From the IMG/VR virus record IMGVR_UViG_2909288124_000003, positions 1 through 52,915 of that record: a stretch of DNA of 52,915 nucleotides. One strand, written 5' to 3'. How positions within the stretch are numbered: position 1 is the stretch's first letter; every line of letters begins with the position of its first letter. The notes under the pieces are model-generated. The model worked only from the letters and a program-made list of their open reading frames with translations. It made no database searches and was not told where the DNA came from. Below are positions 1 through 47,226 of this stretch, piece by piece. The position numbers and the translations under genes are program-made. The DNA is from a virus. Taxonomy: Duplodnaviria > Heunggongvirae > Uroviricota > Caudoviricetes.

Positions 1-111
1 ATGATTTACATCGGTCTACCGCAATGGTCGCATCCTAAATGGGTGCGGTTGGGGATCACCAGCCTTGAAGAGTATGCCCGCCAATTTAACTGCGTGGAGC
101 GGGAAGAATAA
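1..111 (+). pseudogene. yecE: Host yecE (DUF72 family) 5' fragment, interrupted by prophage insertion
   Basis: Reads MIYIGLPQWSHPKWVRLGITSLEEYARQFNCVE then diverges into 3 codons and a stop. The same protein resumes in frame at 45251 after the att core. Confidence 0.7.
86..99. repeat. attL core: 14-bp direct repeat TTAACTGCGTGGAG, identical copy at 45243..45256
   Basis: Exact 14-mer found at both prophage/host junctions inside the yecE reading frame. Coordinates are approximate to +/-1. Confidence 0.6.
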
Positions 112-223
112 AATTCACTAAAGAACGCCCAAGAGCATGAGTTTTCTTTAGCTTATTCATAACGTTATAAAAAAGTTCATATGTAATTCGGTAAAGTTCA
201 TGCATAAATAAATGCCCCACTGA

Positions 224-272
224 TGCCCCATTACTGAATTTTTTGCCCCACGTATGCCCCATCAGATCACCG
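224..272. promoter_or_regulatory. Putative integrase arm-type binding sites (four TGCCCCA repeats in two pairs about 10 bp apart)
   Basis: aaATGCCCCActgATGCCCCA...ttTGCCCCAcgtATGCCCCA just inside attL. Two further TGCCCCA copies lie inside the int 3' end near attR. Confidence 0.4.
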
Positions 273-591
273 GACAGTCGTCATCCAGTCTGTTACGCGT
301 ATCGGTAACGAAATGGGTGACGACGCCGATCACCTGAAGCTCATCGAGACTTTCCCCCTCTATCGCATCACCGTCATGCGTGATGAACGCCTGTCCGAGA
401 ATCTTCCCGAAGTAGCTACGCCCTTCCATGGTGGTGAGCAGTATGTCGCCCTGCCGCACCATCAGCCCCCTGTCGACAACGGCTAATCCCTCCGACGTCT
501 GAATCACCAGGCTGTTCGAGGTCAGGCCGCAAATGTTGTCGGCGGTTAATGTCGCTGATACATAGTCAGCTGCCGGTGAAGGAAAGCCCAT
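262..591 (-). CDS. UmuD/LexA-type S24 peptidase-fold protein, UmuD'-like (begins at the position equivalent to the UmuD cleavage site)
   Basis: MGFPSPAADYV... aligns with UmuD GFPSPAADYVE and the C-terminal VFGVV(I/T)H motif. Start trimmed to the ATG 1 nt after the upstream ORF stop. The canonical GDSM serine motif is not obvious. Confidence 0.55.
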   Translation of the reverse strand: MGFPSPAADYVSATLTADNICGLTSNSLVIQTSEGLAVVDRGLMVRQGDILLTTMEGRSYFGKILGQAFITHDGDAIEGESLDELQVIGVVTHFVTDTRNRLDDDCPVI

Positions 592-592
592 A

Positions 593-832
593 TCACAGCC
601 CCCCGTTCGGATTGAACTGGAACCAGAGCTTGTCGTCGCCCTCTTCCGTCGATGCGTCACGGAACGTGCGCGCATTCAGTCTGATCCACCGGTTGGCCTC
701 ATCGGGTGACATGTCGTGGTTAAGCGCGGCGAGGTTGCGCACGAATGCGCTGGTCCGGACTATCTTGCGGCCAGACGGCTCGCGGGTGATCGACCTGTTG
801 AAAGCTGAGATTTTATCGTCGTAACGCGGCAT
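593..832 (-). CDS. Small SOS-regulated protein (79 aa), first gene of a LexA-box operon; function unknown
   Basis: ORF MPRYDDKISAF... with RBS AGGGAGGGAG, directly downstream of a LexA box. Its stop lies 1 nt before the UmuD'-like ATG. Confidence 0.45.
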   Translation of the reverse strand: MPRYDDKISAFNRSITREPSGRKIVRTSAFVRNLAALNHDMSPDEANRWIRLNARTFRDASTEEGDDKLWFQFNPNGGL

Positions 833-852
833 GACTCCCTCCCTAAAATCTA

Positions 853-872
853 TACTGTGTATGCATACAGTA
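853..872. promoter_or_regulatory. LexA (SOS) box TACTGTGTATGCATACAGTA overlapping the promoter of the 832..262 operon
   Basis: Perfect CTGT-N8-ACAG palindrome about 20 bp upstream of the ATG at 832, with a TTGATC -35-like hexamer upstream on the minus strand. Confidence 0.7.
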
Positions 873-940
873 TTTTTAATTCGAAGGGAGATCAATACTG
901 GTTATAACTATCAATCACCAGAACAGGGATTATTCGCGCA

Positions 941-2209
941 TCAGCTCGGGCTACTGTCAGCACCACCACCTTGTTGTGCGGCTTTCAGTTTCTGGTTGAA
1001 CACCGAACTTTCTGGCATTTCGAGACGCAGGTCTATCCATCGCCCGGCGGGAATATCCATCGGCTCACCTGCGACGATCATAGCGGTTTCACTGTCAAAG
1101 CGACGTTTAAAAACCGACACGATAATGGTTCCGCCCTGAGTGGATTGCGTCTCCACAAAACACAGGGGGTTGCCATTTGAATCCTGTGGGATTTCAATAG
1201 TCCAGCCGTCAGCGTGTAGCCCGACAGCGCCACGTATTTCATATACGCCAGTAGCAATTTTTTCCGCTGTAACGCCTTCCGCCTCCATATTGGTCGCGGC
1301 ACAGCCAGAAAGTGAAAAATCTTCGAGAAAACCAGCAGGCATGCCTCTGTGATCATTGGTAAGTCGCACAACAGGTGAGGCTTTTTTTATAAACCCGTTT
1401 GCATCAACAGTGGTTGTCAGATTGTCCAGCAACAGACGGGTTGTTGAAACCCCCGCAGTGCCGTATCCGGACATTACACGGATGCCCCTGGCAAAATAAT
1501 GCACGCTCATGAGAAACCACGTATCGTTTGCTCCCACCCATAATGTGGGCGCACTTTGTGGAATTTCATAGAATTCACCCGTCATTGGCAATATGTTCTG
1601 TAGGGTTGCAAGACTGAATCCCCTCATTTTTGCCACGACGTTATCAATCACAGATTCACTGGTCGAATTATATTCGGATACAGGAAATCCTTTTTTCAAA
1701 CCAAGCCCTTCACGTGCGCTGGCCTGGGTAGTACCGCCAGTACCGCCCTGCTTTACAGACAATGCTGTGGTCAGCCCTTCCAGACTGGTGATGTCTTTAT
1801 TTACCCCTTTTTTTGCCATGCTGCCAATGGAGGGGATGCTCATGCTTACACCGTTGATGGTGACCGTGATCATCTGGTTGGCTGTAGTGCTGGCGAACGC
1901 CTCCCATGCCCCAATGTTCTCATCGTACTCGTTAATGAGCTGGGAAATGCTCTGAGCCAGCCCGTCAACCGAGATATTGTCTGATACCAGAATGCCGTAC
2001 TTCTTGCCGCTCAGCGCCGGTGATGCAGCAGGCGTTACCGTCATTGACGTGGCGCTATTCACGGATGAAATCTGAAACAGCTGCACCGGGTTAGACATCA
2101 CGATAATCGTCTGGCCAGCGCGAACCTGGCTGGCGGGTGCCGTCCAGTTCGTGCCCGTGCCGGTGGCGCTGTTTCCGTTAATGGCGATGGTTCCAGTGTT
2201 ATAAAGCAT
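941..2209 (-). CDS. Putative side tail fiber / receptor-binding protein
   Basis: Long ORF distal to J. Probable start MLYNTGTIAINGNSATGTGTNW, rich in G/T/S/N as in fiber proteins. Confidence 0.45.
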   Translation of the reverse strand: MLYNTGTIAINGNSATGTGTNWTAPASQVRAGQTIIVMSNPVQLFQISSVNSATSMTVTPAASPALSGKKYGILVSDNISVDGLAQSISQLINEYDENIGAWEAFASTTANQMITVTINGVSMSIPSIGSMAKKGVNKDITSLEGLTTALSVKQGGTGGTTQASAREGLGLKKGFPVSEYNSTSESVIDNVVAKMRGFSLATLQNILPMTGEFYEIPQSAPTLWVGANDTWFLMSVHYFARGIRVMSGYGTAGVSTTRLLLDNLTTTVDANGFIKKASPVVRLTNDHRGMPAGFLEDFSLSGCAATNMEAEGVTAEKIATGVYEIRGAVGLHADGWTIEIPQDSNGNPLCFVETQSTQGGTIIVSVFKRRFDSETAMIVAGEPMDIPAGRWIDLRLEMPESSVFNQKLKAAQQGGGADSSPS

Positions 2210-2267
2210 ATTTTCTCCAGGCAATAAAAAACCCCGCCGAGGCGAGGTTTGCATTGAAAATCATGAG

Positions 2268-2501
2268 TTATTTACATGTCGTGCTTGTGAATGTGTTCGC
2301 ACTTACCCAGCGCCAGTTAAAGGGATATCCGGCCCGGTATTGCGTCTGGTTGTTTTGCTTTCGAACGGCGTAAATCATAACGGTATTCTCATGGCCACCC
2401 ATATATGCCGTGCCGCTGCAAATCGGTTTCTGTTTCTCAAGTACACCAGCGCAACCAGACAGCATTAAAGCGCCCGCTATGCAGATAATTAGCCTTTTCA
2501 T
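2268..2501 (-). CDS. Small lipoprotein, possibly Cor-like superinfection exclusion protein
   Basis: 77 aa with signal peptide and lipobox (LMLSGC). Size and position downstream of the tail genes match cor of phi80/N15-type phages. Confidence 0.4.
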   Translation of the reverse strand: MKRLIICIAGALMLSGCAGVLEKQKPICSGTAYMGGHENTVMIYAVRKQNNQTQYRAGYPFNWRWVSANTFTSTTCK

Positions 2502-2612
2502 TTTGATAGTATCCAGAGGTATTCAGTAGCTTCGAAGATACCAATACATAATCGATGGATATAATTGATTAGATAGATCAATATTATGTTATTGATCGCT
2601 AAAAACGATCAA

Positions 2613-3287
2613 TCAATCATAGGCCGCTGTATTTATGGCGGTTAATGAAATGCCAGTATTCGTTCCCCCTACAGGTGAACCTGTCCCAGTGGAGGTCCCC
2701 CCTGCGTTTATCCTCGTATTGGCCCCGTCAAACCTGCATGAAGAATAAGCATTTATCGTGTAGATAGTCGGAGGCTGGGTTGAATTATTCACATTGATGG
2801 TCTGACCCAACTGAGCAGGTGCAACGGCCCATGACCCGCTCAGCGTCTGGTCAATATTTATCCCGCCGTTTGCACCAGGCGTGCCAACCGTCTGCAGGTC
2901 TGATAGCACACGGGACTCATTAGTTAACACAAGCTTTCCGCTCGCATCCCATATTGCCAAACCCCATTTCGGTAATATCTGCGGGAATATGGCAAAAACG
3001 TACGCCGTTAAAGTGAAACTTTGGTTGTAGGGATTAACACCAACAACATACACATTACCGCCGTTCCTGTAAGACATAACCGGAGTGGGCTGTGCTGTAT
3101 TGGTGGTTTTGATAAAAACCATCACTGGGTAATCAGCGTTTAAAGCGATATTTTGAGCAACCTGCTGAGAACTGCCATTAGCAGAGGAGTTGAAGGTATA
3201 CTTCCCGTAAAGACAGAAAGGCGTTGATTGTGGCGTTACAAAGGGATTCCCGTTATCCATTAATATCATCGCGCCAAATTCGGCCAT
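2613..3287 (-). CDS. Hypothetical tail-associated protein
   Basis: 224-aa ORF between J and the fiber gene, G/N/T-rich. Confidence 0.35.
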   Translation of the reverse strand: MAEFGAMILMDNGNPFVTPQSTPFCLYGKYTFNSSANGSSQQVAQNIALNADYPVMVFIKTTNTAQPTPVMSYRNGGNVYVVGVNPYNQSFTLTAYVFAIFPQILPKWGLAIWDASGKLVLTNESRVLSDLQTVGTPGANGGINIDQTLSGSWAVAPAQLGQTINVNNSTQPPTIYTINAYSSCRFDGANTRINAGGTSTGTGSPVGGTNTGISLTAINTAAYD

Positions 3288-3589
3288 TATGCTTTCTCCA
3301 TGAAAACGACCACCTCACATTTAGAGGCCGGGTAATTACCCAGGCCCACAGAAGAGGCTGCGGTTACGGTTATTGTGTTCCCTGACGCGACAATGCTCCT
3401 CCCTACGCTGTTACCTCCTTCATCAAGTGAGAGCGCAAAACCGACCTTCATTCCTGAGGGTACAGTGAAAGACCAGCTGCCGGAGTTTTGTCCGGCGGCA
3501 AGTTGTATACGTCCAACAACGGAAACGGGCTTGATTCCGTAGTTGTTGGGGTTTCCCGAAGCATCCCAGGTCTGTATTCCATAAGCCAT
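3287..3589 (-). CDS. Hypothetical protein immediately downstream of J
   Basis: 100-aa ORF packed tightly after the J stop. Confidence 0.35.
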   Translation of the reverse strand: MAYGIQTWDASGNPNNYGIKPVSVVGRIQLAAGQNSGSWSFTVPSGMKVGFALSLDEGGNSVGRSIVASGNTITVTAASSVGLGNYPASKCEVVVFMEKA

Positions 3590-3590
3590 A

Positions 3591-6500
3591 TCAGAACACC
3601 CCCGTTAATCGGCCAACCTGCACTCTCAGAACGTTGTTGCCATCCTTGACGCTGATTGTCTGGTTGGTCTGCTTCATGGCTCCCTCCCCAGCTGTCGAAC
3701 CGTAGTTCTCAAACGTCCCGGACTTATCCAGTTTCCAGCCTACTGAGCCAGCCACATAGTTATTCGACTGGATGAAATTGCCGATTTTTGCATTGCTGAT
3801 GGTGCCGTCCTGAATGAACGTTTCCCGGATGAACGTCTGCCCGTTCTGTATCACGAAAGGCAGCGACACAACGGCACCGGCCTGCGTGGTAACAGCAAAA
3901 CGGTCTGCCAGAAAAATTACCTGTGATTGCATGCCGCCAGGTGTATTTTGTACCCCTATGCCCATACCTGCAGCGTAATACTGGCCGTTAGCGGCAACGC
4001 CAACTTTGATGTTGTACATCGCGTTTAGGTTGCCGTTTACATCTGCCACCGCCTGCGCCGTCTGGTTGATGGCTGCAGTCTGCCCGTTCACTGTCACCGT
4101 CAGAGAGTTAATCTTCGTGGCGGATGCCTGGGTGAAATCAGCCAGTGTCTCCGTCAGGTCGGTCGCGTTCGAAACATTCCCACCCGCAGACGCATCAAGC
4201 GTAACCAATGCCCGGGCAACCGCCTGGCTGGTATCGGCAATGGTGGTGTCTATCCGGTCAATTTTTGCGACATTGCCGTTATTGGTGGCAGTCTGGGAAC
4301 GGCGGGAAGTCACCTGCGCCAGGCTGTTCTGGATCACGGCAATTGATGAGTTTTTGACACCGCCGGTCATGCCGTCCATCGACACAGAAATCTCGTCGAT
4401 CTTCACTTCGGCCTGAGCCAGCCCGTCAGCGTTCTCCAGGATGTCTTTCGCCTGCTGCTCGAGTTCGTCGGCATGGTTTTTAATTTCGTCAGCCATGCCA
4501 GCAATTTTTTCGTTGCTGTCCACCGCGTTCTCGATCAGGTCTTTGAACGTTTCCGACTCTTTCATATCCTCCAGAATGTCATTAGTTATTTCGCTGACAT
4601 CTATCGAGGACGTGCCCATGATCCAGTCGGTCCAGTCCCCGGCGTTACCGATACGGTCAATCAGGCGCGCGCGGTACCACTGGCGAACGCCGGCAGGCAT
4701 GGGGCCATGCTGATAATCTGCAGCCGGGTACGGCACCAGGACCAGCAGTTCAGGATTGGCGTAGTCGGCAGTTGTGGCGCGCTGAATCTCTGTATAGGCC
4801 GTGTCGCCTGAGCCATCCGGAAATTTCCAGGTCAGGTCGATATGCCAGACCACATCTTCGGTCGCCAGGAAGTTGAGCGGAGTACCCGGTTTTCCCGTTT
4901 TACCGGAGAGATAAGTTGTTTCACCGTATCCCCATGGTGACGACGTATCCTGCGCATTCAGCGCCCGTACGCGCACGTCATAGCTGCCCGAATAAATGCC
5001 CTGAACCGAGAAACCCTGCGCGCTGGTAACCGGAACGTTTATCCAGTCCCCGTTGTCCTTACGCCACTGGGCAACATACCGGATTGCGCCCTCTACCTTA
5101 TCCCATGACACGTCCAGGCTTGCTACAGTCAGCCCCTGAGACACATGATCGCTCTCAGTCACCACGATATTCTTCGGAGCAGACAGGACGCTTATCGGCG
5201 TGACGGTGATCGGGGGAGACTCGACCCGAACGCCGTCATCGATGTAACGATATTTGTTTGGATCGTGCTGAACGGCCGTAATAGTGAAACCGCCTGTACT
5301 GTCGTCGTTAGCCGCGATTGAGGTGACCCTGAAGTACTGTATTGCGAGGTTATCACTGTCTATCGCCCAAACAGCGCCCGCCACAGGAACCTGACTGAAT
5401 GCCGTAGCCACCGTCACCGTTTTTTTATCGGCGCTCACCGCGCTGATTGTCCGCGTCTGGGCTTTTCCGTCGGGAAGGTTAACCACCAGCCGGTCTTTCG
5501 CCGCGTAGTCTATTTCTCGATCGAGGGTAATTTGGCGGCCGTTGGCCGCGCTTATACGGCCCCCGTTCTCCTTACCAGAGCGGAAAGGATCGGCGACACC
5601 GATAATTTCAGCGGGCAAAGGGATATAACCGTCCAGCCCCACGCCAAACGATACGGTCCCGTCTTTGGCATTGGAGAGCAATACCCAGCGACCGCGTCGG
5701 TGCGCTTCACTTTGCGAGGTGCAGCCGATTGCGGTCAGGGACGTCTGCCGGACGTCGTAACGTTCTACAAGCGCCGAATCGTAAACCCCCTCAACGGTAT
5801 CGCTGTAATGGTTCTGCGGATCGGACCAGGACACCAGGCAGGAGCTGTAGCGATTCTTGTATGAGCCGCCCGCATAAGTAAACAGCCCATCGATAACGTT
5901 TGAGACGTTATAAACCCAGTCAACATCGTCCTGCGGGACGTCTGCCTGGACATAAATCTGATCGTTGCCCCAGAACGTTATTCCACGAAATACCGCGGCG
6001 AGATCGTTAAGTACCTGCCAGGCGTCCTCCTGGCTCTGAATGAAAACGTTGCAGGTGAAACGCGGTTCGGTGCCACCGGCCCCGTCGGAAACCATTTCGT
6101 CACAGTACTGGGCGATTGAATACAGCGCCCACTTATCCACCATGGACGCATCCACGCGCGTGCCCATGCCGTAAATTTCATCCAGAACCAGATCGTAAAA
6201 GATCCAGGCAGGGTTATTGGACCATGCCATTTTGAACCCGCCGGACCATGAACCAGAATAGGTTCGGGTTTTCGGATCGTAATTATCCGGAACCTTAATC
6301 AGCTTGCCTTTTATCTTACAGGTCACTTTCGGCGCGCTGCCGTTGAATTGGCTGCTGTCCACTTCGACATACAGGAGCGCTGTTAAAGGATAACGAAGCT
6401 TGCTGTCGATGACTTCCGCATACGAAAACACCTTGAAGGCGTTAACCAGTTTCGAATTTGATCCGCTGGCATCAGCCGTAATACGCCTGACCCTGACAGA

Positions 6501-7082
6501 CCAGCCGGACGTGGATTTTGGCAGATCGATACGGTGGTCACGCTGATATTCCGTCGTGGTCTTTCCGTCAAACTTGCCGTTTACAACCGTTTTCCAGGCG
6601 CCGCCGTCCGTTGATAAATCGATCGCATACTCGGTGACCGTGCCCACCATATCGCCATTATCTTTATAGAGATACTGGACCGGAAGGCTGAGCTTGATAC
6701 GGATGGCATCCAGGGAAAGGTTTGTAAACTGGCGCGTCCAGGGCGCGGTGGTGGTGACAGTTGTGCCCACGGCCAGCTCGTTGTCGACCTGGGGCATCCC
6801 GGCAATATAGGTCTGGTCCTGTGTGCCCTTGCGGAACTCCCATTTCACGCCGCTGAAGTTGTATTCCCCGCTGTCGTTTGCCAGCGGCGTATCGTTGAGA
6901 AAAATGTTCTGAGCGGTCAGGTCGCCCTGTATTTCCCCCTCAGAAACGGCAATGAGCATTTTTAATTTTGCGACCGACAGCAGATCGTCAGGCTGCTCAA
7001 CCGGAGTATGTGAACTGCCACCTCCCCCTTTGGCACCCTGCAGGATGGTTTCTTGTTTAAGAAGCTGCATTTTTTCACCCAT
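3591..7082 (-). CDS. Tail tip / host specificity protein J (central tail fiber)
   Basis: 1163 aa with the lambda J N-terminal region; the length matches lambda J (1132 aa). Confidence 0.85.
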   Translation of the reverse strand: MGEKMQLLKQETILQGAKGGGGSSHTPVEQPDDLLSVAKLKMLIAVSEGEIQGDLTAQNIFLNDTPLANDSGEYNFSGVKWEFRKGTQDQTYIAGMPQVDNELAVGTTVTTTAPWTRQFTNLSLDAIRIKLSLPVQYLYKDNGDMVGTVTEYAIDLSTDGGAWKTVVNGKFDGKTTTEYQRDHRIDLPKSTSGWSVRVRRITADASGSNSKLVNAFKVFSYAEVIDSKLRYPLTALLYVEVDSSQFNGSAPKVTCKIKGKLIKVPDNYDPKTRTYSGSWSGGFKMAWSNNPAWIFYDLVLDEIYGMGTRVDASMVDKWALYSIAQYCDEMVSDGAGGTEPRFTCNVFIQSQEDAWQVLNDLAAVFRGITFWGNDQIYVQADVPQDDVDWVYNVSNVIDGLFTYAGGSYKNRYSSCLVSWSDPQNHYSDTVEGVYDSALVERYDVRQTSLTAIGCTSQSEAHRRGRWVLLSNAKDGTVSFGVGLDGYIPLPAEIIGVADPFRSGKENGGRISAANGRQITLDREIDYAAKDRLVVNLPDGKAQTRTISAVSADKKTVTVATAFSQVPVAGAVWAIDSDNLAIQYFRVTSIAANDDSTGGFTITAVQHDPNKYRYIDDGVRVESPPITVTPISVLSAPKNIVVTESDHVSQGLTVASLDVSWDKVEGAIRYVAQWRKDNGDWINVPVTSAQGFSVQGIYSGSYDVRVRALNAQDTSSPWGYGETTYLSGKTGKPGTPLNFLATEDVVWHIDLTWKFPDGSGDTAYTEIQRATTADYANPELLVLVPYPAADYQHGPMPAGVRQWYRARLIDRIGNAGDWTDWIMGTSSIDVSEITNDILEDMKESETFKDLIENAVDSNEKIAGMADEIKNHADELEQQAKDILENADGLAQAEVKIDEISVSMDGMTGGVKNSSIAVIQNSLAQVTSRRSQTATNNGNVAKIDRIDTTIADTSQAVARALVTLDASAGGNVSNATDLTETLADFTQASATKINSLTVTVNGQTAAINQTAQAVADVNGNLNAMYNIKVGVAANGQYYAAGMGIGVQNTPGGMQSQVIFLADRFAVTTQAGAVVSLPFVIQNGQTFIRETFIQDGTISNAKIGNFIQSNNYVAGSVGWKLDKSGTFENYGSTAGEGAMKQTNQTISVKDGNNVLRVQVGRLTGVF

Positions 7083-7112
7083 AAAAAAAGGTGCCGAAGC
7101 ACCTTTAAGTTA
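7083..7112 (-). terminator. Hairpin plus U-tract immediately upstream of the J start (attenuator-like)
   Basis: Minus strand reads AAAGGTGCTTCGGCACCTTTTTTT directly before the J ATG. Confidence 0.35.
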
Positions 7113-7124
7113 GTGGCCGCTGGC

Positions 7125-7742
7125 CTACTGCTGATCGCTCGAGTACATACCGGCGCTGACTATCGCTCCCCCTGCCTCAGTCAGACCGTAGGCCAGGGGG
7201 ACAGGATGCCCCATAGCGACGGTATTGACCGGCGCCCCGAAGGCGTAGTTAGGCGTGTTGTCCGTGCTGGAGGATTTACCCGCGCCGAAGGATGGCTGGG
7301 GCGTGAGCATCTGGACAACGCCCCCCAGCATCATCGACACTCCGACCCCTGTCAGAATTGACGTGGCGCTGATAGCTGTTGCACTCATCGCCGCGCCCCA
7401 GGCTGCCATGCTCGCACCAGCGGTAAAGAATGCAGCGACCAGCGCAACAGCCCCGACAACTATCTGCAGGACGCCCGAACTTTTGGCCCCCTCATAAACG
7501 GGCACGATCCGGTACACGCTTCCACCGCGGGTCATATCAAACTCTTCCAGCCCGATATTGTTGCCACCGTTAAAAAAGGCGAAACGGATCCCCTTCATAT
7601 GAGCTTCAGACATATATTTTTTGAATCCGGGAACCTGTGAACACATGGCCCTGAGCATCTCGCGCAGGTCGGCAACATCAAACTGAACGCGTTTACCGAA
7701 TTTTTTTGCCATTTTACCTTCGAGAATAAGCGTCTTAACCAT
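7125..7742 (-). CDS. Tail assembly protein I
   Basis: Lambda I-like size and position. Start trimmed to MVKTLILEG overlapping the K stop. Confidence 0.7.
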   Translation of the reverse strand: MVKTLILEGKMAKKFGKRVQFDVADLREMLRAMCSQVPGFKKYMSEAHMKGIRFAFFNGGNNIGLEEFDMTRGGSVYRIVPVYEGAKSSGVLQIVVGAVALVAAFFTAGASMAAWGAAMSATAISATSILTGVGVSMMLGGVVQMLTPQPSFGAGKSSSTDNTPNYAFGAPVNTVAMGHPVPLAYGLTEAGGAIVSAGMYSSDQQ

Positions 7743-8454: not shown

Positions 8455-8456
8455 TT

Positions 8457-35557: not shown

Positions 35558-35559
35558 CG

Positions 35560-39064: not shown

Positions 39065-39446
39065 CGTAATTTCCTGGTTATCAAAAGCGCCCATAAACAT
39101 CCCTCTTGGTTGTGTGAGAACACCAAGATACCACCACGCCTGATGTGGTTAAAAGCAGGCCAAAGCAATAACAAGTACTTCCCTGTTCTGGCGGCCCGGT
39201 GTTTTCCCGTGTATTTCCGGTAACCGCCAGCCTTTTTCAGGGCACAACGATGAGAACATTGACGAGCAAGGCATAAGTGCTGGTTCGATTCCAGACAGTC
39301 CCATTTAGTTGGGAGGGTTGGGCAGGGAAAAGGTTCGTTCGATTCGAACACCGGCAATGTTCTCTTCGTTGTGGTGAATTGCAGTCCATCGAGACAACCA
39401 GAAGACAAGCGCCTGGCGCCACAACTTGAATGCTGCGTGAAGTGTT

Positions 39447-39492
39447 GGCGGTACCAGTTACATCCCATCAATTAGCTGGTACCGCCCTTTTT
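39447..39492 (+). terminator. Strong rho-independent terminator inside the structured non-coding region
   Basis: GGCGGTACCAG...CTGGTACCGCC (11-bp stem) followed by CTTTTT. Confidence 0.55.
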
Positions 39493-39678
39493 ACACAACA
39501 GAAAAGGGCATCACCGGGCGACGGGCTCATAACCCAATCCACCCGGGCAAAAAGAAAGCGGTCTCTCAAGCCGCCGACCAATGCAGGTGCCCTTCTCTGT
39601 TGTGTATGGAGAAAGTTCGGCGGTGGCAGCCGCCTTAACTTCGTGTATGGACTAAAACCTTGTGCAGAGGAAAGTTAA

Positions 39679-40596
39679 ATGAAATTACCTAAGTTCCGTA
39701 ACGCAATCGTGTACCGCGCCACACTACCTAGCATTGAAGCTATCGAGGGGCATCTGCTTGAACTCCCCTACTCCGAGATTGGTGAAACTGAGTTTTCACG
39801 CGCCTCTTTTGTGCCAAACCCGATCACTGGCGAATTGGTCACCCCAATATCAGGTGGGTATGCCATCGTGATCCGCCATGATCAGAAAATCATTCCCCAG
39901 CATGTTGTTTTGAAGGAAGCCGCAGCACGGATCCAAAGAATCGAAGATATGTCCGGGAGTAAAATCAAACGTATCGAACGATTAGCAATTATCGACAGCG
40001 TCCGCGTTGACCTGTGTAAACGGGCATTTGTTAAATCAACGCTGATCCTTGCGTTGTACAGCACCAACGAAAAGCTATTAGTGGTCAATACGACCAATAA
40101 AAATATTGCCGGTATGGCTGTGGCTATGCTGGTGAAAGTTGTCGGTTCCGTTAAAACAGAAACAATCAACATTAGCGATATTAAGAACGGTTTAACTACG
40201 CGGTTGAAAAACTATATCAATGGCGTGGCCAATGCTTTTGAAGGGTTTACCGTCGGCAATTATATCCAGCTGTCCCGCCTTGCCGATCAAAATGAAGTTA
40301 TTCGCTACTCAGCTGAACACGACTCAATTCAAAGCGAGCTAGTTGATAGCCTTAATAGCGGCTTTACCGCTGATAAAATGGAGCTAGCAGGATGCGGTGT
40401 ATCGTTCATCCTCACCGAAAATTTCCATTTTTCGCGCATCAATACCCAAGCCCAAACATTCAACGATGAAGATGATAAAGCATTTCAATGGCGCCATCAG
40501 GCCGGGACGGATCTACTCCAATTCAGCAAAGTAGTAAACCTGATGTGTGATCTTCTTTCGTACAAAGAAGAACAGCCACAAAAACCCGCAGCCTAA
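39679..40596 (+). CDS. RdgC-like recombination-associated protein
   Basis: N-terminal F(K/R)N..VYR motif and overall pattern resemble E. coli RdgC; sits in the recombination module. Confidence 0.55.
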   Translation: MKLPKFRNAIVYRATLPSIEAIEGHLLELPYSEIGETEFSRASFVPNPITGELVTPISGGYAIVIRHDQKIIPQHVVLKEAAARIQRIEDMSGSKIKRIERLAIIDSVRVDLCKRAFVKSTLILALYSTNEKLLVVNTTNKNIAGMAVAMLVKVVGSVKTETINISDIKNGLTTRLKNYINGVANAFEGFTVGNYIQLSRLADQNEVIRYSAEHDSIQSELVDSLNSGFTADKMELAGCGVSFILTENFHFSRINTQAQTFNDEDDKAFQWRHQAGTDLLQFSKVVNLMCDLLSYKEEQPQKPAA

Positions 40597-40703
40597 TACC
40601 CCAGACCGTAATTAACCCATGTCATGGGTTGGGTTGCTGCACGCTAAATTTAGCAATTCATTAATTTAATAGCGCGGTGCAGCGCGCCAATATGGAGAAA
40701 ACC

Positions 40704-41243
40704 ATGAGCTACATTCAGACATTATCCGGCAAACATTTTAATTACCTCGATATCCAACAGGACGATATCGTGATCGAGGATATTGCTACCGCGTTGTCTC
40801 ATATCTGCCGTTTTGCAGGGCATCTTCCTGAGTTTTATAGCGTCGGCCAGCATAGCGTTTTAACCAGCCACCTCGTTCCGCAGGAGTTTGCATTAGAAGC
40901 ACTGCTTCATGATGCTGCTGAAGCCTACCTGCAGGACATCCCATCCCCGCTTAAGCACCTGCTTCCGGATTACCAGGTGATCGAAGCTCGCGTGGATGCA
41001 GCCATTCGGCAGAAGTTCGGCCTACCGACGGAACAACACCCAACTGTGAAATATGCCGATCTGGTGATGCTCGCCAGCGAACGCCGCGATTTTGAGGTTG
41101 ACGAAGGTTCCGTGTGGCCATGCCTCGAGGGAGTTGTCCCAACGGATTTATTCATTATCAATCCAGTTCGTCCTGGCCAGTCATACGGCATGTTCATCAA
41201 TCGCTTTAACGAATTGATGGAGCAGCGCCAATGCGCCGCATGA
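40704..41243 (+). CDS. HD-domain phosphohydrolase (YfbR-like)
   Basis: H...HD...D pattern (ALSHICRF, LLHDAAEAY). The start could be at 40692 or 40704. Confidence 0.6.
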   Translation: MSYIQTLSGKHFNYLDIQQDDIVIEDIATALSHICRFAGHLPEFYSVGQHSVLTSHLVPQEFALEALLHDAAEAYLQDIPSPLKHLLPDYQVIEARVDAAIRQKFGLPTEQHPTVKYADLVMLASERRDFEVDEGSVWPCLEGVVPTDLFIINPVRPGQSYGMFINRFNELMEQRQCAA

Positions 41244-41407
41244 AGGTAAAAGAACTCGTAGCGGAGGCGTTTGCCTCCGTTGCTGAATTGCCACCAAAGC
41301 ATGCACCGCTTATGCGCGAAGTCGCCACCAGACTGGACGCTACGTTCGCAGCATTAAAAGAGTCTCTGGTGCAACTGGAACAGGAACGTAAAGGTAAAAC
41401 GCCATGA
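41231..41407 (+). CDS. Small hypothetical protein (58 aa), not in the ORF track
   Basis: ORF MRRMKVKELVAEAF... whose start overlaps the upstream stop and whose stop overlaps the next ATG. Confidence 0.3.
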   Translation: MRRMKVKELVAEAFASVAELPPKHAPLMREVATRLDATFAALKESLVQLEQERKGKTP

Positions 41408-41658
41408 CCGTATTTGAATATCTCCAGGCTCACCCCAACGCCACCAGCGCTGAAATAGCTAAGGGTTTAAACAAAAAGACAGCTTCGATCGCTGGTGCAT
41501 TATCGCAACTCTATGGCACCGGCCGGATCGTGAAGTCTGGTGTTCGCAAGGGCATTCCAACATACCGTGTTAACGATATGCCGTTTGGGTGTAGTAACAG
41601 CTTAACCATGATGTTTAACCAGCTATTAAACACAGCCAGAAAGGGAACTGCACAATGA
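41404..41658 (+). CDS. Small winged-helix-like protein
   Basis: 84-aa ORF in the early-left operon. Confidence 0.4.
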   Translation: MTVFEYLQAHPNATSAEIAKGLNKKTASIAGALSQLYGTGRIVKSGVRKGIPTYRVNDMPFGCSNSLTMMFNQLLNTARKGTAQ

Positions 41659-41999
41659 GTAAATCTCTGAACGCACGTTGCATCCGTCGCTGGACCGTCG
41701 AATTTAAAGGCCGCTGCGACTCGAAACATAGCCCGTATTGGCGCAAGCGCGACCTGCGCGGTTACATCCGTGAAGCGGCACTAACTACAGCTTATTGCAT
41801 GGTTGAGCGTATGGCTGAGGACAATGCCAGGGTTGCTTTTTTCGGGTACCTGTACGGTTTGTCGCCTGAATTCTCAGCCTGGTACGATGAACGCCGTGAG
41901 TCATATCTGAAAGAAGCCCGGCGCACACTCAATAAGAACGCCACCAATGATGAGGTTGACGAGGAAATACAGAACGAGCTGGAGGCCTGGAATGACTAA
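41655..41999 (+). CDS. Hypothetical protein
   Basis: 114-aa ORF, translationally coupled to its neighbours. Confidence 0.4.
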   Translation: MSKSLNARCIRRWTVEFKGRCDSKHSPYWRKRDLRGYIREAALTTAYCMVERMAEDNARVAFFGYLYGLSPEFSAWYDERRESYLKEARRTLNKNATNDEVDEEIQNELEAWND

Positions 42000-42324
42000 C
42001 TCACTCAACAAACAGGATTTAGACGACGCACTGTACTTTGACCTTTTTGAAGGTGATTTCGGTACGCCATGCGATACCGAACTATCGAACAAAATTGTTA
42101 CCTCTCGCGGTGAATATAAATGTCACATTTGCGCTGGCGAAATTTTAAAGGGTGAAATCCATCGTAGTACGACGTGGAAATTCGACGGCGAACTCATGTC
42201 CTATCGGTGTTGCAACGAGTGCTGTGTGGCAATGGTTAAAAGCGTCAATTGTGAATATGAAGAAGAAGACCCGATAGAAGCGCGTTACGCGCTGGGCCAT
42301 CTACGCAGAGGATGGGCAGCATGA
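41992..42324 (+). CDS. Hypothetical Cys-rich (zinc-finger-like) protein
   Basis: CHICAG...CCNECC motif; start trimmed to MTNSLNKQ. Confidence 0.4.
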   Translation: MTNSLNKQDLDDALYFDLFEGDFGTPCDTELSNKIVTSRGEYKCHICAGEILKGEIHRSTTWKFDGELMSYRCCNECCVAMVKSVNCEYEEEDPIEARYALGHLRRGWAA

Positions 42325-43004
42325 CCACTAACAACCACCCGGCGCACGGTCCTGTATCACTCGAGCGCCTGCACCAGATACGCGAAATACTCAGCAAAGC
42401 AGCAGCACAAAGCGACGGCGGTAATCTCGGCTACGCAATGGCTGATGCTGTGAAGGTGATTGAAGGGGCAATTGCGGCGTTTGGTGCTGAGCCTGCACCA
42501 GTAGATATTGAAATGCTGGCCACTGCACTGAGAAACGCTCCGTTAGCGCCGTCAGATAGCCAGGGCAAGCCGAGAGCGCCGGTAGCGCCGGAGAATTGCG
42601 TAACAGCAGAACACCGTCGCGTTATTGAAATGCTGCTCAATGTTTGCGGGGCCGCATTCGAACTCGCAGATGATAGCTGTCAGCAAGATGTTGATGGCGA
42701 AGAGTGCCACGTTGTTCCAGACGACGCATTTCAGAAGCTAAGTGATGCGCTGGACGAAATCGAAAACACTCTCCCGACAGAAGATGTCGACAGGCCAGAC
42801 GTATTTCTTGCCTGGTCGGCAATGCCAAGGGCAGCGCTGAAATCTATTCTCCAGGCTGGCAACTCTCCGGTAACTCCGGATGGTTCAACTTGTAAATACT
42901 GCGGTGGCACAGGTTATTTCCGCTGGCAGCAATCAGAAAATATGTGTCCTTGCCCATATGTGGGATGTGACCAGCCAACAGCACCTAATCAAGAGAATGT
43001 ATAA
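42312..43004 (+). CDS. Hypothetical protein with C-terminal Cys cluster
   Basis: 230-aa acidic ORF ending in CKYCGGTGYF...CPCPYVGC. Confidence 0.4.
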   Translation: MGSMTTNNHPAHGPVSLERLHQIREILSKAAAQSDGGNLGYAMADAVKVIEGAIAAFGAEPAPVDIEMLATALRNAPLAPSDSQGKPRAPVAPENCVTAEHRRVIEMLLNVCGAAFELADDSCQQDVDGEECHVVPDDAFQKLSDALDEIENTLPTEDVDRPDVFLAWSAMPRAALKSILQAGNSPVTPDGSTCKYCGGTGYFRWQQSENMCPCPYVGCDQPTAPNQENV

Positions 43005-43575
43005 CGTGAACAATTTAATGATCGATCTTGAAACTATGGGCAAAAAGCCGAATGCCCCTATCGTCTCCATTGGTGCCGTGTTATTCGATCCGCAAAGTGG
43101 TGAACTGGGTCAGGAGTTTTACACCGCTGTTAATCTTGAAAGCGCTATGGAGCAGGGAGCGGTGCCGGACGGTGACACTATTCTGTGGTGGTTAAGACAA
43201 AGCTCAGAAGCACGATCAGCAATCTGTGTTGATGATGCGATGCCGATATCATCTGCCCTATCTGAACTGAGCCATTTCATTAATCGGCATTCTGATAACC
43301 CTAAATATTTAAAAGTTTGGGGCAATGGAGCTACTTTCGACAACGTTATATTGCGCGGCGCATATGAGCGTGCCGGCCAGGTTTGCCCGTGGCAATTTTG
43401 GAATGATCACGACGTCAGAACCATCGTCACATTAGGCAGAGTTGTAGGTTTCGATCCTAAGCGTGATATGCCATTTGATGGGGTTGCACATAACGCACTG
43501 GCTGATGCCCGCCACCAGGCGAAATATGTTTCAGCGATTTGGCAGAAACTAATCCCAACCACCAGCAACAACTAA
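42997..43575 (+). CDS. 3'-5' exonuclease-like protein (DnaQ-like fold)
   Basis: MIDLETMG...SIGAV...H(N/D)..FD motifs; start trimmed to MYNVNN. Confidence 0.5.
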   Translation: MYNVNNLMIDLETMGKKPNAPIVSIGAVLFDPQSGELGQEFYTAVNLESAMEQGAVPDGDTILWWLRQSSEARSAICVDDAMPISSALSELSHFINRHSDNPKYLKVWGNGATFDNVILRGAYERAGQVCPWQFWNDHDVRTIVTLGRVVGFDPKRDMPFDGVAHNALADARHQAKYVSAIWQKLIPTTSNN

Positions 43576-43615
43576 AATTTTCCCCGGGTGCAGCCGGGAT
43601 AATGGAGAAATAACT

Positions 43616-43852
43616 ATGAGCAATATTTTCCAGTTAGCTCCCAACGATTGGGTTTGTGAAAGTGTTCTGATCGCGGTGACCGGGCTCAAGCCCGGTACCA
43701 TCCTCCGGGCCAGAAAAGAATGCTGGATGATTGGGAGGGAGTATATCCACGTATCGCCTGACGGAAATCCTAAACCTTCCAGTGAGTGCATGTATAACAG
43801 AAAGGCTGTAGATGCCTGGGTCGCTTCAATGAAAAGCAAGCAGCCAGGGTGA
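43616..43852 (+). CDS. xis: Excisionase (Xis)
   Basis: 78-aa ORF immediately upstream of the integrase. Confidence 0.6.
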   Translation: MSNIFQLAPNDWVCESVLIAVTGLKPGTILRARKECWMIGREYIHVSPDGNPKPSSECMYNRKAVDAWVASMKSKQPG

Positions 43853-43910
43853 TTTGATGCCATGAAAAAGGTAAGCTCGTATCGCTCTTGGGCGTCTGGA
43901 GGTAACACCA

Positions 43911-45224
43911 ATGGATAAAGTCACATATCCAACAGGCGTCGAAAACCACGGTGGCACATTACGCATCTGGTTTAATTTTAAAGGTAAGCGTGTCAGGGAA
44001 AGTCTCGGTGTCCCTGACACCGCTAAGAACAGAAAGATAGCCGGGGAACTGCGGACATCAGTATGTTTTGCCATCCGCACAGGAACCTTTGATTATGCAA
44101 CCCAGTTTCCTGACTCCCCTAACCTCAAGGCTTTTGGTGTAAGTAAAAAAGACATTACAGTGAAAGAACTTGAAGAAAAATGGCTGGATCTGAAACGGAT
44201 GGAAATCTGCGCGAACGCATTCAATCGCTATGAATCTGTCGCAAGGAATATGGTGCCGAGGATCGGAGGTAATCGCCTGGTGTCAGCAGTAACCAAAGAG
44301 GAATTGCTGTATCTCAGGAAAGATTTGCTAACTGGTTATCAGAGTCCGACGAAAAATAAAGCCCCGGCAAAAGGGCGAAGCGTTGTTACTGTGAACTATT
44401 ACATGACGACAATGGCCGGAATGTTTCAGTTTGCTGCGGATCACGGTTACTTAGAGGTGAACCCATTCGAGGGAATTAAACCTCTGAAAAAAGCCAGGGC
44501 AGAACCAGATCCTCTGTCTCGTGATGAATTTATTCGCCTGATAGATGCATGCCGGCATCAGCAGACGAAAAACCTGTGGTCATTAGCAGTGTACACAGGA
44601 ATGCGTCACGGGGAACTGGTCTCCCTGGCCTGGGAAGATATCGACCTGAAGGCGGGAACAATTACCGTCAGGCGTAATTATACGAAACTTGGTGAGTTCA
44701 CTCTACCGAAAACCGAGGCAAGCACAGATCGAGTGGTGCATCTTATCCAGCCCGCAATCAGCATCCTGAAAAATCAGGCTGAAATGACAAGGCTGGGCAG
44801 GCAATATCACATTGAAGTGCAGTTACGTGAGTACGGTCGTTCGGTGACCCATGAGTGTACATTCGTCTTTAACCCGCATGTGGTCAGACGCAGTAAGCAG
44901 GTCGGATTTATCTACCGGGTCGATTCAGTAGGCGACTCATGGGAAGCGGCACTAAAGCGCGCGGGGATCAGACACAGAAAGGCGTACCAGTCACGACATA
45001 CCTATGCGTGCTGGTCATTATCTGCTGGTGCAAACCCGAGTTTTATTGCCAGTCAGATGGGGCATGCGAGCGCGCAGATGGTGTTCAATGTTTACGGTGC
45101 ATGGATGGCTGACAGCAGCGCAGAGCAGATCGCAATGCTGAATCAGAAGCTGGCAGATTTTGCCCCATTGATGCCCCATAGCCACGAGAGCAGTACTGGA
45201 GGATTATTAAAATCAGTAAGTTAA
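43911..45224 (+). CDS. int: Tyrosine integrase
   Basis: 437 aa with C-terminal catalytic R...HxxR...Y region; ends 18 bp before the attR core; arm-type repeats lie in its 3' end. Confidence 0.85.
   Translation: MDKVTYPTGVENHGGTLRIWFNFKGKRVRESLGVPDTAKNRKIAGELRTSVCFAIRTGTFDYATQFPDSPNLKAFGVSKKDITVKELEEKWLDLKRMEICANAFNRYESVARNMVPRIGGNRLVSAVTKEELLYLRKDLLTGYQSPTKNKAPAKGRSVVTVNYYMTTMAGMFQFAADHGYLEVNPFEGIKPLKKARAEPDPLSRDEFIRLIDACRHQQTKNLWSLAVYTGMRHGELVSLAWEDIDLKAGTITVRRNYTKLGEFTLPKTEASTDRVVHLIQPAISILKNQAEMTRLGRQYHIEVQLREYGRSVTHECTFVFNPHVVRRSKQVGFIYRVDSVGDSWEAALKRAGIRHRKAYQSRHTYACWSLSAGANPSFIASQMGHASAQMVFNVYGAWMADSSAEQIAMLNQKLADFAPLMPHSHESSTGGLLKSVS
45161..45178. promoter_or_regulatory. Integrase arm-type sites (two TGCCCCA copies) within the int 3' end
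   Basis: ttTGCCCCAttgaTGCCCCAta, same heptamer as the four copies near attL. Confidence 0.4.
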
Positions 45225-45242
45225 CCCCTAACGCCCGTCATG

Positions 45243-45256
45243 TTAACTGCGTGGAG
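45243..45256. repeat. attR core: 14-bp direct repeat TTAACTGCGTGGAG
   Basis: Identical to 86..99. Host yecE sequence resumes in frame immediately after. Confidence 0.6.
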
Positions 45257-45652
45257 GGCAACACCACGCTTTACGCCCTGCCGAAACCCGAGGTTGTCCT
45301 GCGCTGGCGTGAGCAGACCACAGATGACTTCCGCTTCTGTTTTAAGTTTCCGGCGACCATTTCGCATCAGGCAGCATTACGGCATTGCGATGATTTAGTG
45401 ACTGAATTTTTGACCCGCATGTCACCGTTGGCTCCGCGCATTGGGCAATACTGGCTGCAACTGCCTGCCACATTCGGCCCACGGGAGCTGCCTGCGCTTT
45501 GGAATTTTCTCGATTCTCTCCCTGGCGAATTTAATTATGGTGTGGAAGTCCGCCATCCACAGTTTTTCGCCAAAGGGGAAGAGGAACAAACGCTTAATCG
45601 CGGTTTACATCAGCGCGGCGTTAATCGGGTGATTTTTATTAGACACGTTTAA
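45251..45652 (+). pseudogene. yecE: Host yecE (DUF72) internal fragment, truncated again at about 45640 by element 2
   Basis: GNTTLYALPKPEVVLRWREQTTDDFRFCFKFPATISHQ... continues the protein from 1..99 and then diverges (NRVIFIRHV stop) where the AT-rich second element begins. Confidence 0.7.
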
Positions 45653-45702
45653 ATACACCACCTAAAGCGATACAATCTAGGGCATCAGTTTTGAGGTGAA
45701 CA

Positions 45703-47226
45703 ATGAAACGTGCCATTTCTTACATCAGGTTTTCATCTGAGAAGCAATCCCGAGGTGATTCACTACGCAGACAGTCTAAGATGGTTAATGACTGGCTTAA
45801 GGCTCATCCTGAGTACTACCTTGACCAAGATTTATCCTTCCGTGATTTGGGGGTGAGTGGGTTCACTGGTAAGCACTTGAAAGGTGGCTTAGGTGACTTC
45901 TTAACCGCTATCGAGAAAGGGCTTGTTAAAGCTGGTGATACACTACTAATCGAGAGTTTAGACCGTCTGTCACGTCAAGATGTAGACCAAGCAAGCGAGC
46001 TACTCAGAAACATTCTTCGCTCTGGTGTAGATGTAGTCACCCTGTCCGATGGTGAACATTACACAAAAGAGAGTTTAAAAGACCCGTTAGCTCTGATTAA
46101 AAGCATTTTGATAATGCAACGAGCGCATGAGGAATCATTACGTAAGGCTGAGCGTATCCAAGCTGCATGGGATGCAAAGAAAGAAGCTGCTAAAGCTGGT
46201 ATCAAGATTTCTAGGCGTTGTCCTGCATGGCTTAAGCTTAATGATGACCGTAAAAGCTTCTCTGTGATACCTGAGAAAGTGGAGACTGTGAAGAGGTGCT
46301 TTCAGCTACGGTTAGAGGGTAAGTCTATCTGGGAGATTGTCAGAACTCTTAATGCTGAAGGTCACCGGTCGATGAACCAATACAAGCCGGGTAAGTTTGG
46401 TCAAACCTCAGTGCAAGACCTTTTGAAGAATCGCTCTGTAATTGGATACTTTACCCCGAAAGGCTGTGAAGAGATATCTGGTTATTATCCTGCAATTATA
46501 GATGAAACAACATTCTACAAAGTTCAACAACTATCACATTCTCGTTATGGAAAGAGGTCTGTTTCAGATAAACCATTGAGTGTGAATCTCTTTAAAGGTG
46601 TTATCCGTTGTTCTGAATGTGGTCATGCTCTGATTATCACAGGCTTTAGCGATACAAGAAACGGGATTTATCGTTGTCCTCTTCGTAATGAAAACCGTTG
46701 CAATGCCAAAGGGCTGTCACGTAAGCAAACCGATGGTACATTACTTGCCCTGCTATCTCGTCTTGACCGATTTGATAGCGATATGACGAATGTCATTGAT
46801 GCATTGAAGCTACACCGTGAACACATCTCAAACAATATTGAAAAGCTGGTACAGCTATCACTTGAAATTGAAGATTTGTCAGCTATTACCATCAAACTAA
46901 AGCAGTTAAAAGGTGAGCTATCACAGGTTGATGCGGATATCGAGAAGGAGACACAACGCCTTAAATCTATTGATGTGGGGTGTTTGTCTGATTGTGACTT
47001 GACTACAAAGGCGGGAAGGATTGAAGCACAACTGATAATCAAAAGTGCTGTTAAAGAGGTCGTTTTAAATACTGCTAAACGTCGCTGTAAAGTAACTTTT
47101 CACAATAGTAAGTCAATCACCCTACCAATAACAGAAAACCCCTCAGAGGACGTTACAGAGGCTATACAGTCGCTTTCTGAAGTCACTGAGAGGGGGTTGA
47201 TAGATGTTGATGAGGTTATCATATAG
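45703..47226 (+). CDS. Large serine recombinase (serine integrase) of a second integrated element
   Basis: N-terminal resolvase-type catalytic region (ISYIRFSSEKQ), recombinase and zinc-ribbon region (CSECGH...CPLRNENRC), coiled-coil C-terminus; sits at the junction with yecE. Confidence 0.8.
   Translation: MKRAISYIRFSSEKQSRGDSLRRQSKMVNDWLKAHPEYYLDQDLSFRDLGVSGFTGKHLKGGLGDFLTAIEKGLVKAGDTLLIESLDRLSRQDVDQASELLRNILRSGVDVVTLSDGEHYTKESLKDPLALIKSILIMQRAHEESLRKAERIQAAWDAKKEAAKAGIKISRRCPAWLKLNDDRKSFSVIPEKVETVKRCFQLRLEGKSIWEIVRTLNAEGHRSMNQYKPGKFGQTSVQDLLKNRSVIGYFTPKGCEEISGYYPAIIDETTFYKVQQLSHSRYGKRSVSDKPLSVNLFKGVIRCSECGHALIITGFSDTRNGIYRCPLRNENRCNAKGLSRKQTDGTLLALLSRLDRFDSDMTNVIDALKLHREHISNNIEKLVQLSLEIEDLSAITIKLKQLKGELSQVDADIEKETQRLKSIDVGCLSDCDLTTKAGRIEAQLIIKSAVKEVVLNTAKRRCKVTFHNSKSITLPITENPSEDVTEAIQSLSEVTERGLIDVDEVII

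Follow-up and report, generated by a model that had tools for sequence, protein, structure and literature searches.

The gene yecE is listed among those disrupted by prophages (Bobay et al.; PMC3603311), and a 21-bp attachment (att) sequence within it is used by Stx1a, Stx2a and Stx2d phages and by non-Stx phages (Nakamura et al. 2021; PMC8112680). Phage satellites of Escherichia coli have been described as a set of 224 putative elements that carry a tape measure gene and a gene for a baseplate component and lack other tail genes, with the Justusliebigvirus phages Inny and Muut and with Mt1B1_P17 as the proposed helpers (Barth, Dunham and Seed 2023; PMC10448857). The stretch of DNA analysed here (52,915 nucleotides of IMG/VR record IMGVR_UViG_2909288124_000003; hereafter the window) contains yecE interrupted twice, by a lambdoid prophage with a P27-type integration module (element 1) and, further into the gene, by an AT-rich island that begins with a large serine recombinase gene (element 2). 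The prophage and its use of yecE are already known. The value of the locus is element 2, a variant of satellite-like islands tied to virulent phages. A literature search on yecE and serine recombinases, and on satellites of the Ounavirinae or Felix O1, found no paper describing the yecE island, in a coverage that was incomplete and had subscription journals mostly outside it.

Two interruptions at separate sites in yecE

The 5′ fragment of yecE (DUF72) occupies 1..99 (+ strand) and corresponds to codons 1-33, after which the translated frame exits into foreign sequence (..FNCVE, then REE and a stop). This is the position, near codon 33, at which a sequence-only reading of the window had placed a lambdoid prophage, and the integrase of the inserted element is of the P27 family. 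The yecE frame is again open from 45242 (VNCVEGNTT...) up to 45636, where it ends a second time (..NRVI, then FIRHV and a stop). Bases 1-99 joined to 45257-45636 form a sequence of 479 nt that agrees at 474 positions with the 5′ part of the uninterrupted yecE of strain C2, and the two pieces are therefore one gene. This comparison with an uninterrupted yecE, by which the proposal of two breaks in a single gene could have been overturned, left it standing.

The first break is bounded by a direct repeat of 14 bp, TTAACTGCGTGGAG, which the sequence-only reading had noted. Exactly two copies are present in the window, at 86..99 (attL core, + strand) and 45243..45256 (attR core, + strand). With one mismatch allowed there were no further copies, the shuffled-sequence expectation being 0.04, and the core includes the 11-bp att annotated in phage P27. 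The second break was predicted about 390 bp further into the gene and was measured at 45636/45637, 380 bp past the first core; perfect matches to genomes with intact yecE end exactly there. Genuine yecE of 394 bp (the middle fragment, 45243..45636, + strand, recognised by its frame and by comparison with intact yecE) separates the prophage from the island, and the G+C content drops across the second junction from ~51% to 39.6%. All coordinates of the sequence-only reading proved right to within a few bases.

Each element also occurs in yecE without the other. The island is found alone in C2, WP9-S17-ESBL-11, 2013C-4830 and two draft genomes, and the P27-type prophage is found alone in KL53, Nissle 1917 and many others. 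With an att site and a junction anatomy of its own, the serine recombinase lies outside the prophage, as had been proposed, and the tandem occupancy of one gene by unrelated integration chemistries (tyrosine and serine recombinase, with independent att sites) was confirmed. The two attB sites are 380 bp apart within yecE, neither insertion destroys the attB of the other, and the tandem arrangement arises because one gene contains both sites. Very probably, two unrelated mobile elements inserted independently at two sites inside the dispensable yecE gene; nothing found contradicts this reading.

The serine recombinase and its attachment sites

Element 2 is AT-rich and starts with a large serine recombinase gene, as the sequence-only reading had it. 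The gene (45703..47226, + strand) encodes 507 amino acids (aa) with Resolvase (PF00239), Recombinase (PF07508) and Zn_ribbon_recom (PF13408) domains and matches phrog_95 integrase. Its N-terminal YIRFSSEKQ motif includes what we take to be the expected serine. The protein is 100% identical in amino acid sequence to that of the C2 copy, in which yecE is otherwise uninterrupted and the junctions define the sites: attB is GGGTGATT-TT-AGACAGCC, attL is GGGTGATT-TT-TATTAGACACGTTTAAATACACC and attR is GGTGTATTTAGACCTTGATGAT-TT-AGACAGCC.

Comparison of attL and attR in C2, WP9 and 2013C-4830 left TT alone in common, and in the divergent WP9 copy nothing but TT is common to attB, attL and attR. The inferred crossover dinucleotide in the window attL is the TT at 45635..45636 (+ strand). 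It is followed by the P′ half-site, TATTAGACACGTTTAAATACACC (45637..45659, + strand), whose inverted counterpart in sister elements, GGTGTATTTAGACCTTG.., is located at their far junction; in WP9 the inverted match extends over 17 of 23 positions. The attR at the far end of the window island is predicted as ..GGTGTATTTAGACCTTG(A/C)T(G/A)AT(T/C)-TT-AGACAGCCGCCCGG. A sigma-70-like promoter (TTTAAA-17-TACAAT, 45648-45676; a consensus match only) is located just after the P′ half-site and just before the recombinase start codon.

Phage-type large serine recombinases include the phiC31, Bxb1, TP901-1 and A118 integrases. The element 2 recombinase is like these in its set of three domains within 507 aa, in an attP of ~50 bp with imperfect dyad symmetry, and in a 2-bp non-palindromic crossover that leaves no long direct repeat. 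No long repeat is produced because joining proceeds via the 2-bp TT overlap. Unlike these integrases, it is carried with an island cargo of 11-12 kb and not with a complete phage. No candidate recombination directionality factor was identified among the island genes.

Gene content and distribution of the island

The window holds the first 7.3 kb of element 2 (45637..52915, continuing past the window end; G+C 39.6%), which is ~11-12 kb long to judge from sister copies; the distal third of the window's own island lies beyond 52915, and its content was read from those copies. After the recombinase gene, all recognised genes are on the - strand. They encode a Dit-like baseplate/tail protein of 257 aa (47241..48014; PF21821), a tape measure protein of 693 aa (48188..50269; PF20155, phrog_4036), a conserved 71-aa open reading frame (ORF; 50437..50652) that is matched by a gene of 66-71 aa at the same position in all sister copies, a conserved protein of 234 aa that is predicted to be all-alpha (50675..51379; long helices in AlphaFold2), a conserved 107-aa protein (51935..52258; intact in 5/5 copies) and, by domain match, a 95-aa HNH_3 endonuclease (52416..52703). 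The ratio of nonsynonymous to synonymous substitution rates (dN/dS) was 0.13-0.45 for the 234-aa protein and 0.14-0.39 for the 107-aa protein. Pfam, PHROGs and PADLOC-type profile scans gave no family match for the 234-aa protein, whose homologues are confined to E. coli, Shigella and Citrobacter; its AlphaFold2 model, built on an alignment of 14 sequences, is of low confidence (pLDDT 55). A complete sister island had no match in Rfam.

Six copies of the yecE island measured 11.2-11.9 kb and ended at the 3′ fragment of yecE. All ten sampled copies, the second-site copy included, were ~11-12 kb long and had one gene order: the recombinase, then on the opposite strand the Dit-like protein (257 aa), the tape measure protein (~690 aa), the ~70-aa ORF, the ~234-aa protein and the 107-aa protein. 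The distal part varies among sister copies and encodes either HNH or AP2-HNH endonucleases, or an HTH_36 replication-initiator-like protein together with a Dam methylase and a small serine recombinase. C2-type sister islands carry the HTH_36/replication-initiator-like protein, and WP9-type copies have no recognisable initiator. Among public contigs with the identical Dit-like protein, the closest relative of the window island is 96.8% identical over 45233-52440. In the O55:H7 strain TB182A a related element of 11.2 kb lies between tonB and yciI; its Dit-like and tape measure genes are 88% identical to those of the window, and its recombinase, just 35% identical to that of the window, has its own att site.

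Matches to the tape measure region were found in 481 of 5,426 complete E. coli genomes, in up to four places per genome, and relatives of the island are also present in Shigella, E. albertii and Citrobacter. A scan of the GTDB species representatives with the Dit-like protein returned E. albertii and one Citrobacter only, a narrow result because a single-protein query reaches close relatives only.

The five core genes were intact in 5/5 copies, which are separated by synonymous divergence (dS) of 0.1 to >2, with dN/dS of 0.1-0.45. The copies are also mosaic: the recombinase of the window equals that of C2 at 100% of amino acids, and the tape measure proteins are only 51% identical. With intact core genes, low dN/dS and mosaic copies, the islands look like a living mobile family that recombines and is under purifying selection, and not like a decaying prophage end. 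In Citrobacter sp. ANG330 (L012 5868-9908) two ORFs (259 and 340 aa), probably an insertion sequence element, have inserted into the tape measure gene and divided it; this is the sole clearly inactivated core gene among the sampled islands.

The island is linked to the Ounavirinae

The tape measure and Dit-like genes are the only virion genes recognised in the island. When island DNA was compared with phage genomes, matches (~74%) were confined to these two genes, and all were in the Ounavirinae, the Felix O1-like phages. Homologues of the Dit-like protein were present in 299 of 50,697 phage records, all of them Felix O1-type genomes of 82-92 kb and none a temperate phage; identity was 66-73% in phages of E. 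coli, Salmonella, Shigella and Citrobacter, with a maximum of 73%. Likewise, the whole genome of phage Sf17 matched the island in two adjacent genes only, again those for the tape measure and the Dit-like protein, and the G+C contents are close (39.0% for Sf17 and 39.6% for the island). Similarity between the island and Sf17 tape measure proteins is concentrated in the first 40 aa (83%), in a block at the centre (50-75%) and in the C-terminal 13 aa (8/13); elsewhere identity falls to ~15-25%.

A second link was found outside the coding sequences. The Dam/Rep-type sister islands, including the closest relative of the window island (L023), contain a non-coding stretch of 63-81 bp with 80-87% identity to Sf17 sequence immediately ahead of gp022. 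In Sf17 this stretch (L008 10735-10830, ~85-96 bp) is unique in the genome. Its conservation is 94-100% across 253 phage records, Felix O1, phiSUSP1 and Moogle among them, which were tied to the Ounavirinae set by their names and hosts (Escherichia, Salmonella, Shigella, Citrobacter and Felixounavirus names). The phage stretch contains an inverted repeat, AGATATC-N6-GATATCT, and a palindrome, CTTAAAAG-C-CTTTTAAG, and had no match in Rfam. The island version occurs in 113 E. coli genomes and lies in the intergenic region from which the Dam and small-recombinase genes diverge (L001 30376-30454; L007 ~18570-18650; L015 ~25070-25150; L023 ~2440-2520). A promoter/operator, an origin of replication and a packaging signal are candidates for its function.

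The island thus has a specific genetic link to a candidate helper, as is characteristic of satellites, through a Dit-like protein with homologues in the Ounavirinae only and through the non-coding copy in sister islands. In size (11.2-11.9 kb) and in having less than a full set of virion genes it likewise falls within the general range of satellites.

A model for the island and its alternatives

Both integration events were shown by comparison of sequences. The P27-family tyrosine integrase, with its excisionase and arm sites, recombined the phage attP with the yecE attB and so duplicated the 14-bp core, and the serine recombinase cuts its attB between GGGTGATT and AGACAGCC at TT and joins it to the ~50-bp, imperfectly palindromic attP. 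In the model for what follows, the island would be silent in the chromosome until a Felix O1-like phage infects. Infection is predicted to trigger excision by the serine recombinase together with a putative directionality factor, after which the excised island would replicate from its own initiator and express the tape measure and Dit-like proteins. These proteins may enter or disturb tail assembly of the helper via their conserved docking segments, alongside the remaining virion parts of the helper. The outcome would be spoiled helper tails, packaging and transduction of the island, or both.

From its genes, we would bet neither for nor against the island being a parasite of virulent Ounavirinae, akin to a satellite, or a defence element directed at them. 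More tentatively, and with the balance leaning against it, the islands may constitute an undescribed compact family of satellites of Felix O1-like phages, one that has interchangeable large serine recombinases, replaces the tape measure and baseplate-hub protein of the helper tail with its own and carries a helper-specific non-coding signal for packaging, replication or transcription.

Several results weigh against a satellite, a lifestyle predicted here from sequence. The initiator, the Dam methylase, the small recombinase and the non-coding stretch belong to the distal third of sister islands, outside the window. A tblastn search with the sister-island replication initiator against the 50,697 phages found no Ounavirinae nuclease fused to the Rep DNA-binding domain of the island, and the Odn-like arms-race signature on which Barth et al. 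relied is therefore missing. The IMG/VR contigs that carry the island are 20-55 kb long and include flanking DNA, with no sign of packaged 11-kb units. Profile scans of the island recognised no genes for a capsid, a small terminase subunit or redirection of capsid size that would explain packaging. Most of the island genes are also without recognisable function in these scans.

The lack of recognised packaging and capsid genes is what would be expected if element 2 were instead a mobile anti-phage defence island that cannot be transduced and spreads otherwise, its divergent tape measure and Dit-like proteins retaining docking segments of their Ounavirinae counterparts and acting as dominant-negative decoys that poison the tail assembly of Felix O1-like phages. 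Interference with tail assembly is a documented defence strategy (PMC11364771), and the restriction of tape measure conservation to short segments, next to 66-73% identity of the Dit-like protein, would suit a decoy. PADLOC, however, identified no known defence system among the island proteins, with matches limited to a homing endonuclease, an orphan methylase and weak HTH-domain hits. Moreover, a pure decoy would have no need of a replication initiator or of the copied non-coding stretch, which is ultraconserved in phages; both fit better with exploitation of a helper. We consider a pure defence island unlikely.

Two virion genes beside an integrase are also found at the ends of many cryptic prophages, and the split tape measure gene of ANG330 indicates that decay does occur. 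Element 2 could accordingly be read as the decayed remnant of a temperate prophage that entered yecE by means of the serine recombinase and later lost most of its genes, the tape measure and Dit-like genes being functionless leftovers. The ten copies of like size and gene order, maintained even with a 35%-identical recombinase at another site, and the intact core genes under low dN/dS argue against decay, and among the 50,697 phages there was no closer relative than the virulent phages that hold all of the homologues. A remnant is, in our judgement, a distinctly unlikely origin.

Functional coupling of the two elements, with the island mobilised by or dependent on the prophage or with one insertion favouring the other, is very improbable. 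The prophage int gene, the recombinase gene and the piece of yecE between them share the + strand, and a simple consensus scan found no terminator-like site between int and the recombinase gene; read-through from int into the recombinase gene is conceivable. The recombinase nevertheless has the promoter-like site of its own described above, and the island structural genes have no lambdoid homologues. The serine recombinase was found at yecE in 197 of the 5,426 complete E. coli genomes, and a P27-type int joined to yecE as in the window in ~423 of them, Nissle 1917 included. Both elements lay on one continuous stretch in at least 13 genomes against 15.4 expected (hypergeometric P(X<=13)=0.32), counts that are approximate, ignore shared ancestry and depend on coverage thresholds. 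About 184 of the 197 islands had no adjacent P27-type prophage, and in JNEC-KY173 and two drafts the same tandem layout was found with different lambdoid prophages beside the island. Because the observed co-occurrence is close to that expected under independence, tandem occupancy is real but ordinary and recurrent; it looks like chance co-occurrence, with no sign of coupling, and it has no demonstrated function.

That the serine recombinase belongs to the lambdoid prophage as part of a single composite element with two integrases, for which only adjacency in the window speaks, was rejected as next to impossible, given the genuine yecE between the two, the occurrence of each without the other at the same junctions, and the switch in G+C content.

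The P27-type prophage

Element 1 (100..45242, ~45.1 kb) was identified from its identity to KL53 and from Pfam and PHROGs matches as a non-Stx lambdoid prophage with a P27-type integration module. Its tyrosine integrase (437 aa; 43911..45224, + strand) contains Arm-DNA-bind_2 (PF12167) and Phage_integrase (PF00589) domains and is 90% identical to P27 Int over 436 residues (85% in DNA). The 78-aa excisionase ORF (43616..43852, + strand) lies in a region that is 99.8% identical to KL53, where an excisionase family protein is annotated. The att of 11 bp annotated in P27, TTAACTGCGTG, sits within the 14-bp core of the window. The arm-type repeats that the sequence-only reading had noted on both sides are present as six copies of WTGCCCCAY, all in one orientation, at the inner flanks of the two core copies: four in the P′ arm (212..262, + strand) and two in the P arm, within the 3′ end of int (45160..45179, + strand). 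P27 has the related sequence ATGTCCCAATGATGTCCCAT at the same place in int, and its related arm repeats ATGTCCCA are at the position matching that in the window.

An arm-binding tyrosine recombinase, duplication of the yecE core, xis beside int and arm sites on both arms are the features of a P27-type module, and by its sequence element 1 is an ordinary, already known kind of prophage at a known site. Compared with P27 itself (a Stx2e phage; AJ298298), element 1 has an integrase of equal length, the excisionase just upstream of it, the same att core and the same position of arm repeats. The stx genes of P27 are missing from element 1, only the int region is common to both, the late region is KL53-like, and the window prophage has two antiterminator-plus-lysis modules.

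Element 1 appears to be a complete prophage. Over 679-26235 it shares 99.5% identity with the KL53 yecE prophage, in which J host-specificity, tape measure, capsid-protease fusion, portal and terminase proteins are annotated. Early-region products recognised with Pfam and PHROGs include a CI/LexA-type repressor (HTH_3 and Peptidase_S24 domains; 37735..38454, + strand), a CII-like protein, a replication protein, an antirepressor, RusA, RdgC, two antiterminators and two lysis cassettes. The antiterminator-plus-lysis modules are arranged in series within 24036-31790. The first consists of a DUF1133/Q-like gene (31212-31790) with a holin_8 gene, a Glyco_hydro_19 endolysin and a spanin at 28544-30170, and the second of an Antiterm Q gene (27704-28540) with a P21/HP1-type holin, lysozyme and Rz at 24036-25394. 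The arrangement points to a late-control region that is recombinant or composite.

None of the scanned prophage ORFs matched the Stx families. Between the second Q gene and its holin, the ORFs of at least 80 aa were just a 316-aa phrog_7003 protein and an 83-aa ORF, the latter outside the scan. Identity as a Stx phage was rejected, there being no stx gene between Q and the lysis genes or among the scanned ORFs. The 316-aa ORF (26645-27595, + strand; no Pfam match) lies in the opposite orientation, with the second Q gene on one side and its lysis cassette on the other, the position occupied by stx in Stx phages, and is a candidate moron. Two overlapping ORFs adjoin attL past the tail fibre gene (within 262-895, - strand); one is UmuD-like (phrog_3469), the other matches phrog_3893, and both appear to be cargo. 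A gene for an SDH-type ClpP-like serine protease (22559-23461, - strand) lies between the lysis genes and the terminase and is also present in KL53.

Near the attR core (45203-45260), the phage DNA to its left resembles the yecE sequence to the left of attB, with GCCCGyCAwk ahead of the core in each. In KL53 (L002 4304-5077) PGAP annotates a 257-aa DUF72 ORF that begins within the 3′ end of int. Where yecE is otherwise intact, the prophage may thus permit expression of a YecE with a changed N-terminus. At its tail-fibre end, the KL53 yecE prophage (L003 4745-5488) borders yciI and tonB and not yecD, which implies a large chromosomal rearrangement, probably a prophage-to-prophage inversion. In O55:H7 TB182A, this tonB/yciI interval serves as att site for the second type of island.

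Implications

The double interruption matters mainly for annotation. There are two separate recombination sites in yecE, and therefore occupancy screens by polymerase chain reaction or BLAST, as in the typing of Stx phages, can be confounded by the island; in strains that also carry it, excision of the prophage will not restore yecE. Felix O1-like phages are classical phages of typing, biocontrol and therapy, and a common parasite or blocker of these phages, if the island is one, would affect predictions of host range. A recombinase with a defined attB and attP is in addition a candidate tool for site-specific integration.

Comparison with known satellites

The described elements closest in layout are the Barth-type satellites, which at 10-14 kb are similar in size to the yecE island and have a tail gene set likewise reduced to a tape measure and a baseplate component. 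The gene order also corresponds: an integrase, then on the opposite strand Dit_like, the tape measure, a small ORF, further genes, an HTH_36 initiator-like gene and a small serine recombinase. The integrases differ, being tyrosine integrases at tRNA or lysR sites in the Barth-type elements and a large serine recombinase in yecE in the island. The Barth-type elements encode a Phage_cap_E major capsid protein and a decoration protein, whereas the yecE island has no recognisable capsid family and the all-alpha 234-aa protein at the equivalent position. There is no DNA similarity between the two types, the small recombinases alone match (31-35% of amino acids), and the tail genes of the yecE island point to the Ounavirinae instead. 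Strain C2 holds one element of each type at different loci, the Barth-type element, with Phage_cap_E, being at tRNA-Thr; for C2, Table S6 of PMC10448857, in the part available, gives the Barth-type locus only.

A satellite of a virulent phage with similar integration is known from Vibrio cholerae. This element, PLE, is ~18 kb in size. PLE shares with the yecE island a large serine recombinase, a replication initiator of its own and an association with a virulent phage, for PLE the myovirus ICP1 (PMC6002521, PMC7145576). No sequence relationship was detected between the two, and induction, excision and transduction are proven for PLE, whereas the yecE island is known from its genes alone. The island thus falls outside both the Barth family and PLE as these are defined, and by analogy its layout resembles that of both; if it is a true satellite, it would be a tractable E. 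coli counterpart of the Vibrio PLE-ICP1 system.

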